A stretch of 6,664 nucleotides of DNA from a virus (taxonomy: Duplodnaviria > Heunggongvirae > Uroviricota > Caudoviricetes), in IMG/VR virus record IMGVR_UViG_2526164633_000050; one strand, given 5' to 3'. Below the pieces are notes generated by a model. It was given only the letters and a program-made list of their open reading frames with translations. It was not told where the DNA came from and did not search any database. Below, piece by piece: positions 1 to 6,664 of the stretch. Made by a program: the position numbers and the translations under genes. Numbering within the stretch: the stretch's first letter is position 1; each line of letters starts with the position of its first letter.

Positions 1-1278
1 GTACTGCCATCCGCCCTGCGCCAGTCTTCAGCCCGTAAACCGTTACCGGCCTCACTTCCCCGTGAAACCCGGGTCATCCGGCCGGAAGAGGAATGCTGCC
101 CGGCCTGTGGTGGTGACCTCAGTCCTCTGGGGTGTGATGTGTCAGAGCAACTGGAGCTTATCAGCAGCGCCTTTAAGGTTATCGAAACACAACGTCCGAA
201 ACTGGCCTGTTGTCGGTGCGACCATATCGTGCAGGCAACAGTACCTTCAAAACCCATTGCACGCAGTTATGCCGGAGCGGGGCTTCTGGCCCATGTTGTT
301 ACCGGGAAATATGCAGACCATCTGCCGTTATACCGCCAGTCAGAAATATACCGTCGCCAGGGCGTGGAGCTGAGCCGCGCCACGCTGGGGCGCTGGACAG
401 GTGCCGTTGCTGAACTGCTGGAGCCGCTGTATGACGTCCTGCGCCAGTATGTGCTGATGCCCGGTAAAGTCCATGCTGATGATATCCCCGTCCCGGTCCA
501 GGAGCCGGGCAGCGGTAAAACCCGGACCGCCCGGCTGTGGGTCTACGTCCGTGATGACCGTAACGCCGGTTCGGAAATGCCCCCGGCGGTCTGGTTCGCG
601 TACTCACCGGACCGGAAAGGTATCCATCCACAAAATCATCTGGCCGGTTACAGCGGTGTGCTTCAGGCCGATGCTTACGGTGGTTACCGGGTGTTATACG
701 AATCCGGCAGAATAACGGAAGCCGCGTGTATGGCTCATGCCCGGAGAAAAATCCACGATGTGCATGCAAGAGTGCCCACCGACATCACCACGGAAGCCCT
801 GCAGCGTATCGGTGAACTGTATGCCATAGAGGCAGAAGTCCGGGGATGTACAGCAGAACAGCGTCTGGCGGCAAGAAAAGCCAGAGCTGCGCCACTGATG
901 CAGTCACTGTATGACTGGATACAGACTCAGATGAAAACACTGTCGCGTCACTCGGATACGGCAAAAGCGTTCGCATACCTGCTGAAACAGTGGGATGGCC
1001 TGAACGTGTACTGCAGTAATGGCTGGGTGGAAATCGACAACAACATCGCAGAGAACGCCTTACGGGGAGTGGCCGTAGGCCGGAAAAACTGGCTGTTCGC
1101 GGGTTCCGACAGCGGTGGCGAACATGCGGCGGTGTTGTACTCGCTGATCGGCACATGCCGTCTGAACAATGTGGAACCAGAAAAATGGCTGCGTTACGTC
1201 ATTGAGCATATCCAGGATTGGCCGGCAAACCGGGTACGCGATCTGTTGCCCTGGAAAGTTGATCTGACCTCTCAGTAA
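1..1278 (+). CDS. tnpC: IS66-family transposase (TnpC-like), 5'-partial; continues upstream of window
   Basis: Frame 1 is open from base 1 to TAA at 1276-1278. Translation (VLPSALRQ...[27 protein letters not shown]...LWVYVRDDR...[17 protein letters not shown]...[54 protein letters not shown]) matches remembered IS66 TnpC hallmarks: N-terminal Cys-rich zinc-finger, central catalytic region, conserved C-terminal block. ORF-track start at 139 is an internal Met. Confidence 0.93.
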
Positions 1279-3139: not shown

Positions 3140-3339
3140 CTGCGTGGCTCCTGTACTTGTCGGATAAGATTCACCCGCGCCACGTTGGTGGCGCAGAAAT
3201 AAGTGCCGTCAGTGAGGTAGATGTGGTGCGCATCCTTTTCCGAACGATGTTTGTCGATAGTGGTAATCAGGCGTTCGTCGACCTCGTATTCGCGCCCTCT
3301 GGAGGTAAAGCGAACGACGGAAAAATGCTTAATTGCCAT
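3136..3339 (-). CDS. hypothetical early-operon protein (67 aa)
   Basis: ATG at 3339 preceded by AAGGGGG; stop TGA 3138..3136, coupled to the next gene. Confidence 0.55.
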   Translation of the reverse strand: MAIKHFSVVRFTSRGREYEVDERLITTIDKHRSEKDAHHIYLTDGTYFCATNVARVNLIRQVQEPRR

Positions 3340-3362
3340 TGCGCCCCCTTTGTCCAGTAACC

Positions 3363-3701
3363 CTATGCGTTAAATACGGCACGTTGCGCGTCATCAATGA
3401 ATACAGCTTGAGAGCGTTCTATCAGGCGGAGATTTGTCAGAAGCTCAGACTCTTTTGTGTGGTAAGGCGTTATCAGGTATTTGCCGTGCAGTTCGGCAAT
3501 AATGGTGTATTGCGGCATCATTGCTGAACCAAGAATATAAATGCAGCGTCCAATGCTGGACGGATTCATGGCTGCAACTGTTGACTGTGTTTTAAGAGTG
3601 TCGATTTCTTTGCTCTGTTCCTCAATAATTTTGGCTGCGTCAGCGGTGATTTTTGCAATGGTCAGTGCGTGAAGTGCTGCCATATGTTGGCTACGCTTCA
3701 C
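3363..3701 (-). CDS. hypothetical early-operon protein; start uncertain (GTG 3701 or ATG 3683), probably the frameshifted continuation of an ORF starting at ATG 3778
   Basis: Long open frame ending TAG 3365..3363. The frame is open upstream to 3779 but the only in-frame starts (GTG 3701, ATG 3683) lack a Shine-Dalgarno. A strong RBS+ATG at 3778 is in another frame and joins this one at an A7 run (see findings). Confidence 0.55.
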   Translation of the reverse strand: MKRSQHMAALHALTIAKITADAAKIIEEQSKEIDTLKTQSTVAAMNPSSIGRCIYILGSAMMPQYTIIAELHGKYLITPYHTKESELLTNLRLIERSQAVFIDDAQRAVFNA

Positions 3702-3870
3702 GGCATCTTTAGCCGTTTCATCTTCCGCTTCTGATATTTTTTTAATGTGTTGATAATGCCTTCTTCTTTTGTGTTCATTTTATATCTCCGTTATTTACGT
3801 GTGCGAATACCTCCGCGAATGCGGATAGTTTTCAGGTTTTCGGGTTTAATCTGGTGTTTTGTTTAAGCTG

Positions 3871-3984
3871 TTATTCGTCAGTGAAAAAGCGTTCAATCTT
3901 TTTTACTGAATGAATAATTCGCATAATCCCAATGGCGCAGGCCACCGAAATAATCAGAACAAGCCATGAGATAAATATACTCAT
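3871..3984 (-). CDS. putative small membrane peptide (37 aa: MSIFISWLVLIISVACAIGIMRIIHSVKKIERFFTDE)
   Basis: Not in the ORF track (short). ATG 3984..3982 overlaps the TGA of the 80-aa ORF (ATGA, + tcat 3981-3984) and is preceded by GGGGA about 7 nt upstream; stop TAA 3873..3871. One predicted hydrophobic helix followed by a charged tail. Confidence 0.4.
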   Translation of the reverse strand: MSIFISWLVLIISVACAIGIMRIIHSVKKIERFFTDE

Positions 3985-4223
3985 GCGATATTCCCCAGCT
4001 TATACGGTTCAATATGTTCCCCGCATTCTGCGGCACAGATCAGCTCGGAAAGTTCGTTAAGTGCATCCAGATCATCAGCGTAAAAAGCGACGTCATACAA
4101 ACTCCGGATTGCCCTGGTCAATGAGTCACGAGCTGCACGTTCAGCATGAGCGCCTGATGCACTTAAGCGAAAATAAAATCGTTCAAGTGCTTTGTTAATG
4201 AGAGTTTTATATTCTTTGCCCAT
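3981..4223 (-). CDS. hypothetical early-operon protein (80 aa)
   Basis: ATG at 4223 with AAAGGG upstream; stop TGA 3983..3981. Confidence 0.55.
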   Translation of the reverse strand: MGKEYKTLINKALERFYFRLSASGAHAERAARDSLTRAIRSLYDVAFYADDLDALNELSELICAAECGEHIEPYKLGNIA

Positions 4224-4234
4224 CGCAACGCCCT

Positions 4235-4513
4235 TTAATCTGCTTTCTGAATTTCAGCTTCTGAATCCATACAAATAATTTCGATATATGGTTCATCGCC
4301 ATTAACCTGACGTGCCTTTTCAGCTTCGCTAATGATTTCTCGCACGGTCTGGTACGGAAGCTCCACAGTCAGGCGCGTACCGTTCAGATAAACGTAAGTA
4401 GCTGCGTTTTTTTCGGATGGAACAACTCCGTCAATGGCTGATGCGCGTAATAACAGTTCACCGCGAAAATCAATAAAACGGATAAATACACCTTGTGCAT
4501 GCTCTTTGGTCAT
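4235..4513 (-). CDS. hypothetical early-operon protein (92 aa from ATG 4513)
   Basis: ORF-track start at 4573 is a TTG inside the upstream gene. ATG at 4513 is preceded by AGGTG and lies 10 nt after the upstream stop; stop TAA 4237..4235. Confidence 0.55.
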   Translation of the reverse strand: MTKEHAQGVFIRFIDFRGELLLRASAIDGVVPSEKNAATYVYLNGTRLTVELPYQTVREIISEAEKARQVNGDEPYIEIICMDSEAEIQKAD

Positions 4514-4523
4514 AAAGCACCTG

Positions 4524-4865
4524 TTATAAATCAGCCTGTTTAATAAAACTTTGCCCACGAAACAGACGATCAACCGTGCGAAGTGCTTCGTATAATGTGA
4601 AATCCTGCCCGAATTGATTGTCGCCGTAGCTCAATGCAAAAATGCGGTTTCCGGTAAACGGATTGCGTGGGCATTTGTGGATCACGATTCCAGCTTTCTC
4701 AATCAGCCAGGCATGCTCGCCGATTTGTTTTACTGGGTAGCCATCCGGCGTTGCGTGTGTATCACTCAGGCTGTAGCGGATGTTGCTGCGTGATGCACTG
4801 GTAGCGAAACGGTTAGCGTGGCGTTCAGCACCATTACGAAAGCGTGAATTACGTTGCTGTTTCAT
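4524..4865 (-). CDS. hypothetical early-operon protein (113 aa, basic N-terminus)
   Basis: ATG at 4865 preceded by GGGAG with about 6 nt spacing; stop TAA 4526..4524. Second gene of the leftward operon, 18 nt after the cox-like stop. Confidence 0.6.
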   Translation of the reverse strand: MKQQRNSRFRNGAERHANRFATSASRSNIRYSLSDTHATPDGYPVKQIGEHAWLIEKAGIVIHKCPRNPFTGNRIFALSYGDNQFGQDFTLYEALRTVDRLFRGQSFIKQADL

Positions 4866-4883
4866 ATCAAAACTCCCTGCATC

Positions 4884-5210
4884 TCATGCAGCAAAATTAA
4901 GAAAGCCTAATCCCAAATCTTCCGCCAGCTTCTTGGCTTTCTTAAGCCAGTGATTGCGCCAATCTTTACGCTCAGGAGGAAGCTGTTTCGTTGCGTCATA
5001 GACCATTTCGAGCCACTCATTCCAAAGGATGAGAAGACGGCGTGAACTCCCTTCCTCGCCTAAAACCTCGCGCTCAGTAGTTAGAGGGATGAGTCGACGC
5101 TCTACCAACTTTCTTACGGCTGATTCGGTCTTACCTGTGCGGCGGGAAAACTCATCGACGGTGATGGGGTCTGGGATCTTAAACAATGCCCTCAATAGTT
5201 CTTCATTCAT
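4884..5210 (-). CDS. Cox-like small DNA-binding protein (putative excision/lysis-lysogeny regulator), 108 aa
   Basis: First gene transcribed divergently from the repressor. ATG at 5210 has the best RBS (GGGAGA, 7-nt spacer); ORF-track start 5279 and ATG 5267 have none. HTH-like segment ITVDEFSRRTGKTESAVRKLVERRLIP and C-terminal PERKDWRNHWL resemble remembered P2 Cox. Position and size fit a cox/apl-type gene. Confidence 0.6.
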   Translation of the reverse strand: MNEELLRALFKIPDPITVDEFSRRTGKTESAVRKLVERRLIPLTTEREVLGEEGSSRRLLILWNEWLEMVYDATKQLPPERKDWRNHWLKKAKKLAEDLGLGFLNFAA

Positions 5211-5305
5211 GTGATAATCTCCCTGTTTGGGGTATTTCTTGCGACGGATGCCCCAAATCAAACTCATTTGTATAAACATTAATACAGACGTTGGAGAATT
5301 GCAAC
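5211..5305. promoter_or_regulatory. putative lysis-lysogeny switch region (divergent early and repressor promoters with inverted-repeat operator candidate)
   Basis: 95-bp gap between divergent cox-like and C-like genes. Inverted repeat TTTGGGG (5226-5232) / CCCCAAA (5251-5257) with 18-bp spacer. Candidate leftward promoter TTGCAA (5299-5304), 17 nt, TAATGT (minus; + 5276-5281). Candidate rightward -10 TATAAA (5271-5276). Promoter calls are pattern matches only. Confidence 0.45.
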
Positions 5306-5608
5306 ATGCGTATGACTATTGGAGAGCGCATAAAAATCATGCGTGAAAGCGAGAGACTTACTAGCCTCCCGGATACAGCAAAAATGCTTGGTTTAAACCG
5401 TGATGCTCTGTGGAGATATGAAAGCGGTAAAACTATCCCTAATGCTGAAGTAATTGAGCAAATACTAAACAACCCCAGATTTGAGAAATATGCGTTGTGG
5501 TTTATGACTGGGAAAATTGCGCCTGAATCCGGGCAGATAGCTCCGGCTCTCGCACACTATGGGCAAGAGCCAACGGACTTACCCCCATCCGAAAGGAAAA
5601 TTGGCTAA
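5306..5608 (+). CDS. P2 C-type immunity repressor (about 100 aa)
   Basis: ATG at 5306 preceded by GGAGA at 5293-5297; ORF-track start 5291 is 15 nt upstream in frame. N-terminal HTH-like region and the block YALWFMTGKIAPESGQIAPALAHYGQ resemble remembered P2 C repressor. Immediately upstream of the integrase on the same strand, as in P2. Confidence 0.8.
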   Translation: MRMTIGERIKIMRESERLTSLPDTAKMLGLNRDALWRYESGKTIPNAEVIEQILNNPRFEKYALWFMTGKIAPESGQIAPALAHYGQEPTDLPPSERKIG

Positions 5609-5674
5609 CCCTTTATTATTCTTACGTTTTACAAACTGGAAATGTCTTTCCTCGTTTCACCGGAGGGCTTGCCA

Positions 5675-6664
5675 ATGGCAATTAAAGCGCTCGATGGTGG
5701 ACGGTATAAAGTGGATGTTAGACCGCGTGGCCGAAGTGGACGTCGGATTCAGCGGATTTTTAAGAAAAAGGCAGATGCAGTGGCCTTTGAGCGTTATGTT
5801 CTCAGCCACATGCACGATAAGGAATGGCTTGAAAAGCCAACAGAGCAACGTCATCTCTCAGATCTGCTTCCGTTATGGTGGGAATTGGGTGGACGCAATA
5901 AGCCATATGCTAACGGCGTTCTAACCAGGTTGAAAAAAATCATCAAAGAAATGAATGATCCAAGGGTTAGCCAGATTAATGCTCGTTTCATGGCCGCTTA
6001 TCGAAGCTCCCGTTTATCCTTGGGAGTAAAAGAGTCTACTGTTCGGCGTGATGAGTCGGATCTCGGAGGAATGTTTACACTCCTGGCAAATGCCGGGGAA
6101 TTTCACGGAGAAAATCCGCTCCGCGCCCTCCCCTCTTTGAAACGAAAATCACCCGAAATGACGTATCTCACCACGGAAGAAATCGCCAAATTACTGGATG
6201 CAGTAAGCGGTGATGCCCGGCGGATTACGCTACTTTGTCTCAGTACTGGGGCGAGATGGGGAGAAGCGAAAAATCTGCGCGCGGAACACATCATCAATAA
6301 TCGCGTGACGTTTAACAAAACTAAAAACGGAAAAGTTCGAATTATTCCTGTCTCTGATGAAGTTGTTAGTGAGATCAAAACAAAGAAATCCGGCCTTTTG
6401 TTTGACGTCAATTATGAGGAATATCGCAAGGTGCTTCGCAGTGTTAAGCCAGACCTACCAAAAGGACAGGCTGTACATGTTCTACGCCATACCTTTGCTG
6501 CTCACTTTATGATTAATGGAGGAAATATACTTACGCTCCAGCGAATTATGGGGCACGCCACGATCCAGCAAACTATGACCTATGCGCACCTCGCTCCTGA
6601 TTTCCTCCAGGATGCAATTTCACTTAATCCGTTAAAAGGAGGCATCCACATTTCATCCACATAA
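5675..6664 (+). CDS. int: P2-type tyrosine integrase (site-specific recombinase), 329 aa
   Basis: ATG at 5675 preceded by GGAGGG; the ORF-track start 5642 adds 11 residues not expected from the P2 Int N-terminus. N-terminus MAIKALDGGRYKVDVRPRGRSGRRIQRIFKKKADAVAFERY and catalytic boxes (TGARWGEA, HVLRHTFAAHF, GHATIQQTMTYAHLAP, C-terminal LQDAISLNPLKGG) match remembered P2 Int. TAA stop is 6662-6664, the window end. Confidence 0.95.
   Translation: MAIKALDGGRYKVDVRPRGRSGRRIQRIFKKKADAVAFERYVLSHMHDKEWLEKPTEQRHLSDLLPLWWELGGRNKPYANGVLTRLKKIIKEMNDPRVSQINARFMAAYRSSRLSLGVKESTVRRDESDLGGMFTLLANAGEFHGENPLRALPSLKRKSPEMTYLTTEEIAKLLDAVSGDARRITLLCLSTGARWGEAKNLRAEHIINNRVTFNKTKNGKVRIIPVSDEVVSEIKTKKSGLLFDVNYEEYRKVLRSVKPDLPKGQAVHVLRHTFAAHFMINGGNILTLQRIMGHATIQQTMTYAHLAPDFLQDAISLNPLKGGIHISST

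Follow-up and report, generated by a model that had tools for sequence, protein, structure and literature searches.

The minus-strand frame of 37 codons at 3984..3871 of the window, as we call the whole stretch of 6,664 nucleotides that was analysed, is a genuine protein-coding gene under purifying selection, as judged from the comparison of related sequences, and we regard it as highly likely that this small ORF is a real, translated gene. It opens with an ATG at 3984-3982 and closes with a TAA at 3873-3871, and its 37-aa product is MSIFISWLVLIISVACAIGIMRIIHSVKKIERFFTDE. The assignment of the coding sequence (3871..3984 including the stop, minus strand) as a small membrane protein gene draws on hydrophobicity, AlphaFold2 modelling, conservation and existing annotation. 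The gene is already catalogued, and it is a member of the P88-like (Xuanwuvirus / P2-family) early-operon gp07 family.

The preliminary description had presented the small ORF as unannotated, which proved to be incorrect. RefSeq E. coli holds it as the PGAP 'hypothetical protein' WP_000021654.1, with an identical annotated CDS in NZ_CP182387 (99.6% identical to the window), phage P88 carries it as gp07, 'membrane protein' (YP_009113050.1, 97.3% identity by tblastn), and the record of phage vB_EcoM-569R5 names it 'putative membrane protein'. The exact 37-aa sequence lies in a 183-member 90% cluster found on >1000 contigs, listed by UniRef as 'Prophage membrane protein' with members from Escherichia, Shigella and Salmonella. 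P88 gp07, WP_000021654.1 and the UniRef entries represent the same gene, being 97-100% identical, differing by single substitutions and occupying the same position after the gene for the DUF4754 protein; all of them supply a name only, with no function attached. No significant match of the peptide was obtained in Pfam, PHROGs, NCBIfam, PADLOC or a PDB sequence search. The roles put forward in the preliminary description, namely host inhibitor, toxin or exclusion factor, are conjectural. A literature search found no mention of the gene accessions, DUF4754 or DUF4761, and the published P88 paper concerns tail fibres. We would place the product, as an uncharacterised member, among the small single-pass phage/prophage membrane proteins.

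The ORF together with its 3' spacer was present in 1352 of 5426 complete E. coli genomes (~25%), and the carriers included O157:H7 and ST131 strains; Salmonella, Shigella and Citrobacter prophages carried it as well. One 226-kb contig labelled as a Firmicute (L004, NZ_JBQPOM010000071.1, 'Vagococcus sp. WN89Y') carried the enterobacterial prophage module, with DUF4754 98% identical and a small ORF of the identical type, and its label is probably the result of assembly contamination or mislabelling.

The window covers that part of a P88-like (Xuanwuvirus, Peduoviridae, P2-family) E. coli prophage in which its regulatory and early genes lie. A tyrosine integrase gene (5642..6664, plus strand) runs off its end, followed inwards by a C-type HTH immunity repressor gene (5291..5608, plus strand) divergent from the early operon. 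The first gene of the early lytic operon is Cox-like (4884..5210, minus strand); its PF10743 Phage_Cox score of 25.3 bits is just under the cut-off of 27.5, and Cox genes occupy the same place in relatives. Then come, all on the minus strand, the DUF4761 gene (4524..4865; PF15958, E=4.6e-68), a 92-aa gene (4235..4513; phrog_3800) and, directly upstream of the small ORF, the 80-aa DUF4754 gene (3981..4223; PF15946, E=2.8e-54). Beyond the small ORF lies a gene of 138 aa in relatives (3363..3778, minus strand; phrog_9338), succeeded by 67-aa, MarR-like and 99-aa genes, isrK-like and C4-like RNAs, a 'derepression' gene, a 129-aa gene and the start of gpA.

The 138-aa gene is frameshifted in the window, where one A has been lost (A7 at 3737-3743 vs A8 in relatives), leaving a 26-aa stub and a GTG-initiated remnant ORF from 3701. 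A 170-bp non-coding gap had been described after the small ORF, and this figure could be traced to the frameshift, since the ORF track shows only the GTG ORF from 3701; the actual spacer is 92 nt long, with the ATG of the next gene at 3778. At the other end of the operon, an IS66-family transposase gene (139-1278, plus strand) abuts the gpA replication-endonuclease gene (about 1280-1600) and truncates it. With gpA cut by IS66 and the 138-aa gene frameshifted, the prophage copy in the window is defective, and expression from this copy is therefore uncertain. We also observed Rfam matches to the C4 antisense RNA (78.5 bits) and the isrK Hfq-binding RNA (62.8 bits), at 2311-2398 and 2434-2508 on the minus strand. 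Both precede the 'derepression' (antirepressor-like) gene (2024-2254), in the gap on its upstream side, a layout that recalls the P1/P7 immI type within a P2-family prophage.

For the comparative analysis, 184 DUF4754-bearing loci were fetched from annotated E. coli and phage records, IMG/VR contigs and assemblies, some contigs being included twice. Viral scans with DUF4754, alignment-based and single-sequence, returned the same 80 near-identical loci, and divergent DUF4754 queries gave 4 loci. The small ORF was open in all of the fetched loci, always with its ATG at the 4-nt overlap after DUF4754, and encoded 36 distinct peptides. Loss of the frame in related prophages had been named in the preliminary description as the observation that would count against a gene; the frame was open in 184/184 and pN/pS over the first 33 codons was well below 1. 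In addition, a phmmer scan of 1.84 billion representative proteins matched this family only, in forms of 37, 41, 45 and 59 aa and down to 47% identity.

Since short ORFs are common in the window and most E. coli copies show 86-100% DNA identity, a chance ORF that owes its open state only to recent copying of the prophages might be considered. The divergent loci speak against this. Their forms of the small ORF sat at the same site in all divergent P2-like early operons examined, at an ORF nucleotide identity of 61-71% and with pS of 0.5-0.8, which is near saturation, while pN was 0.2-0.3. Frame and overlap were kept at this distance, and the peptide remained 48-64% identical over its first 33 residues where DUF4754 was only 26-40% identical to that of the window. 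Pairwise dN/dS was 0.15-0.5 for most pairs, and Fisher tests placed nonsynonymous below synonymous change with p from 0.013 to 1.3e-5. Among six divergent sequences the annotated frame was the sole one of the six frames free of stops, and it had the lowest pN/pS (0.45 vs 0.52-2.1). As far as comparative data can do so, these results refute a chance ORF, which we regard as scarcely credible.

The end of the frame was less constrained, as frameshifts were tolerated in the last 4-8 residues, giving a 45-aa tail variant through a 1-nt deletion in a T-run and a 59-aa variant (L090). Separately, a lineage was noticed in which codon 4 carries a 1-nt deletion (L187, GCA_031627035.1, about 1193-1225, with cluster members P0006 and P0008), for which gene callers report 34-aa or 28-aa products from non-ATG starts, and there were occasional pseudogenised alleles. 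The disrupted alleles in some lineages indicate that the host, and in at least some cases the prophage, can do without the small ORF; some decay of its alleles is expected for prophage genes.

The hydrophobicity of the product was then considered against the background of the window, which holds 89 ORFs of at least 30 aa, so that length alone is commonplace by chance. The most hydrophobic 19-residue stretch of all 89 was formed by residues 3-21 of the small ORF, with a summed value of -2.93 kcal/mol on the Hessa scale; of the 15,705 ORFs that shuffling of the window produced, only 1 reached this value. The predicted transmembrane helix (residues 3-21) corresponds to nt 3922-3978 and the basic amphipathic tail (residues 22-37) to nt 3874-3921, both on the minus strand. 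A hydrophobic stretch followed by a basic/acidic tail had been described before, and this was borne out by the Hessa scale, which gave a TM-type helix at residues 3-21, and by the charged tail. AlphaFold2 modelled the 37-aa peptide as one continuous helix from residue 2 to 35 (pLDDT 90.7). Its residues 22-35 form an amphipathic segment, whose hydrophobic moment of 1.98 compares with a mean of 0.90 in shuffles (p about 0.01). These results suggested that the 37-aa product is very likely a membrane protein, and we infer that it inserts into the membrane. Because all Lys/Arg of the peptide lie on the C-terminal side of the helix, the positive-inside rule predicts that the topology is probably N-out/C-in, with the tail cytoplasmic.

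Across 48 distinct peptides of the family, S6, W7, L10, I11 and I24 were invariant and G19, R22 and K28 nearly so, and the substitutions that did occur in the helix were conservative. Variability along the helix showed no helical periodicity (p=0.23), so that a specific interaction face is not supported. A bacterial lipoprotein was also considered and rejected, the peptide having no basic N-region and Cys16 not being conserved, as family members can have Met, Ser or Tyr there.

In its build, a short N-terminal TM helix passing directly into an amphipathic helix, the peptide resembles TatA/TatE, although it is half the length of TatA. The window peptide gave no match to TatA/TatE NF003393, and two 41-aa family members gave E=0.004 and 0.11 at 12-17 bits, the best score being 16.9 bits against a 104-bit cut-off; the TatA resemblance is most likely compositional. 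The small bacterial inner-membrane regulators AcrZ, MgrB, KdpF and Blr are single-pass proteins of fewer than 50 residues that act by binding larger membrane proteins and keep their positive charge cytoplasmic, and the Pf3 coat protein exemplifies the mode of insertion of very short N-out/C-in proteins. No sequence relationship to any of these five was found, and the peptide studied here differs from them in being phage-encoded and, as we infer, early-lytic rather than chromosomal.

Small hydrophobic membrane peptides are also made by type I toxin genes (Hok/Gef, Ldr, TisB, Fst, BsrG), whose products, 20-60 residues long, combine a single hydrophobic helix with a charged tail; prophages frequently carry them. 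On one alternative reading, the small ORF product would damage membranes on its own, as a 'kil'-type or type-I-toxin-like peptide: its helix would form oligomers in the inner membrane, dissipate the proton-motive force and arrest the host early in lytic growth, DUF4754 being irrelevant. One TM helix with a charged tail, a size like that of Hok-, Ldr-, Fst- and BsrG-type toxins, extreme hydrophobicity, the location on a prophage and the rare lineages with inactivated alleles all agree with such a reading. However, when ten family members were scanned against Pfam at E up to 10, no type I toxin family appeared and the only families reported, PET117, DUF2975, DUF6007 and RAMP4, were below significance, and NCBIfam had nothing relevant to toxin families for the peptide. 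Type I toxins have their own transcription unit, which is without counterpart here: the small ORF lacks a promoter of its own, and its start codon overlaps the upstream stop in every locus. They also have an antisense RNA, and for the small ORF none was found, as neither a promoter-like site on the antisense strand at 3300-5400 (by a consensus scan, which could miss a weak promoter) nor an Rfam antisense RNA (at 3700-4050, E up to 1) was detected; the gene is instead embedded in, and coupled to, an operon. Early host killing would be counter-productive unless mild, and the invariant or nearly invariant polar and special residues S6, W7, G19 and R22 suggest more than bulk hydrophobicity. We consider a toxin of this kind unlikely.

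The translation signals tie the small ORF to the gene before it. Its ATG and the TGA of DUF4754 share the sequence ATGA (3981..3984, minus strand), a putative signal for translational coupling, and a GGGGA Shine-Dalgarno-like run (3992..3996, minus strand) lies within the 3' end of the DUF4754 gene, 7 nt ahead of the ATG. Both elements had been noted in the preliminary description and were confirmed. The 4-nt overlap with DUF4754 was kept in divergent loci (for example, gene coordinates 3762..4004 and 4001..4126). The duplex of GGGGA with the 16S 3' end was predicted at -5.5 kcal/mol, as compared with -3.8 to -10.7 for other genes of the operon, and a purine-rich SD-like run was retained at the same place (GGGGAA, GAGGAG, AGGAGG or GAGGTGG) although the surrounding DUF4754 C-terminus changes. 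The conserved overlap and purine-rich run thus uphold the earlier proposal of a real small gene coupled to the preceding early-operon gene. A single sense-strand promoter candidate was found inside DUF4754, and it was weak, with 9 of 12 positions matched.

These signals, together with the place of the gene, make early-lytic expression by coupling likely. In the P2 and 186 records, Pe/pR are annotated as repressed by C/CI. By the P2/186 paradigm, the small ORF, fifth in the Cox-led early lytic operon, would be transcribed with it and shut off by the C repressor in lysogens, and it would be translated by coupling to DUF4754 through the ATGA overlap and the internal SD. Given the repression of the operon by C/CI in P2 and 186, the peptide should act in the early lytic phase and not as a lysogenic-conversion factor. 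Its action would then be timed to lytic growth or induction rather than to the resting lysogen, the timing being deduced from the operon.

Such an expression pattern bears on whether the peptide might be a superinfection-exclusion or anti-phage factor that blocks the entry of incoming phage DNA at the inner membrane. Membrane exclusion proteins are a known kind, and a small inner-membrane protein of a temperate phage would suit this role. Nevertheless, the gene lies within a Cox-led early lytic operon that would be repressed in lysogens by the P2/186 paradigm, it is not in the known P2 conversion loci, a convincing independent promoter was not found, and none of three peptide variants matched a PADLOC model at E up to 10. 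We therefore judge an exclusion factor to be very unlikely. A holin was likewise set aside, the gene being located in the Cox-led early operon between DUF4754 and regulatory/replication genes and not in a lysis cassette.

The small ORF is followed by a 92-nt spacer (3779..3870, minus strand), which is A/C-rich and G-poor on the sense strand and contains repeated GAAAAC motifs. About 45 nt past the small ORF stop, the spacer can form a 5-bp hairpin (3812..3825, minus strand; sense RNA UCCGC-AUUC-GCGGA). The form UCCGC-N4-GCGGA was present in all 184 fetched loci, in 31 distinct versions. One stem pair had changed from C-G to U-A, a compensatory double change, in 4 of 16 distinct versions, and one-sided changes gave G-U, which pairs only in the sense RNA; stem cells were paired in 80%, vs 35-55% with the partner slid. 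Mosaic breakpoints between different 'middle' gene sets were located about 15 nt beyond the hairpin. The whole spacer folded no better than shuffles (z = -1.29), and Rfam gave no match at 3700-4050 at E up to 1.

A sense-strand intrinsic terminator after the small ORF was rejected, there being no U-tract in the sense direction, and the hairpin resembles an intrinsic terminator only on the opposite strand. In some divergent relatives (L086, 4672-5157, and L090, 4968-5450, both on the minus strand of the locus), a gene of 160-161 aa in the opposite orientation was observed a few genes downstream. Its transcription runs in the direction of the small ORF, and transcripts of this sort could be stopped by the hairpin, which is terminator-like in the antisense orientation.

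The conserved hairpin also raises the question of whether the peptide itself is unimportant and the translation of the short ORF is regulatory, for instance by keeping ribosomes on the mRNA as far as the G-poor spacer and hairpin, which would control Rho-dependent polarity or RNA processing ahead of the variable middle genes. The G-poor, A/C-rich spacer and the conserved hairpin follow the ORF in every locus, terminators stand at the analogous boundary in P2 and 186, and the C-terminal tail tolerates frameshifts, all of which would fit. The constraint at the amino-acid level, with dN well below dS, conservative helix substitutions and invariant residues, is unexpected for a purely regulatory frame, and we regard this explanation as highly improbable.

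The comparison with the relatives P2 and 186 bears on both the gene and the hairpin. In the 186 record, two genes annotated as host-directed, fil (cell-division inhibitor) and dhr (host replication inhibitor), end the first early block, after which comes terminator tR1; the P2 record places a terminator after B. DUF4754 and the small ORF, as a pair, are found at the corresponding position. The 186 genes fil and dhr are positional analogues of the small ORF, as small overlapping genes that end the first block of an Apl/Cox-led early operon and are followed by a boundary element. By analogy with 186 tR1, the hairpin may serve in RNA processing, in stability or as a Rho-dependent boundary, although the element at this boundary lacks a U-tract and is a hairpin, not an intrinsic terminator. 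The gene products also differ, Fil and Dhr not being transmembrane peptides, unlike the product of the small ORF. Homology to 186 Fil/Dhr or P2 Orf78 was set aside: no resemblance was evident when the translations were compared by eye, and none of them has a transmembrane segment.

The upstream neighbour of the small ORF was also examined. DUF4754 was modelled by AlphaFold as a three-helix bundle (pLDDT 90.4), and its predicted structure had no informative fold match. DUF4754 and the small ORF occurred together in 184/184 fetched loci. The suggested partnership of the two proteins, which we offer as conjecture, has as its basis this invariable co-occurrence and the coupling. Their linkage may equally reflect block inheritance in a narrow family. 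One locus (L092, GCA_900536625.1) pairs an E. coli-type DUF4754 with a 41-aa-type peptide, indicating recombination inside the module, and this mosaic argues against tight co-adaptation of DUF4754 and the peptide. In the same locus, at 1-1795, a Mu-type transposase gene was seen where int, C and cox normally sit.

Taken together, we propose that the small ORF would encode a 37-residue bitopic inner-membrane protein, with a two-residue N-terminus, a TM helix at residues 3-21 and a short amphipathic tail bearing all Lys/Arg, which probably inserts without dependence on a signal peptide, as other very short proteins do. Through its strongly conserved helix the peptide would bind a host inner-membrane protein, or else it would self-associate in the membrane, and it plausibly works with the soluble three-helix DUF4754 protein. 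The host target is a matter of conjecture, and a function as host-directed membrane effector is put forward tentatively, at less than an even chance. The statement as a whole, namely a P88-like gene for a bitopic protein, with coupled early-lytic expression and a guess at a host-directed effector, comes just short of an even chance. A more daring version, quite unlikely in our estimate, is that DUF4754, the 37-41-aa peptide and the 3' hairpin would constitute an undescribed early-lytic host-takeover module of P88-like phages, in which the TatA-like peptide would dock on a host inner-membrane machine (e.g. the divisome, FtsH or a translocase) and inhibit it or recruit DUF4754.

The small ORF is an ordinary catalogued hypothetical gene with good comparative support, which is unsurprising in itself, and it makes a sound small-protein candidate. 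Its amino-acid sequence is more tightly held than that of its neighbour DUF4754. As a class, small membrane proteins have been little explored, and the early genes of phages have proved to be a source of inhibitors that act specifically on host machines. Should the peptide have a defined host target, it would offer a compact tool and supply a missing part of the P2-family lytic programme.
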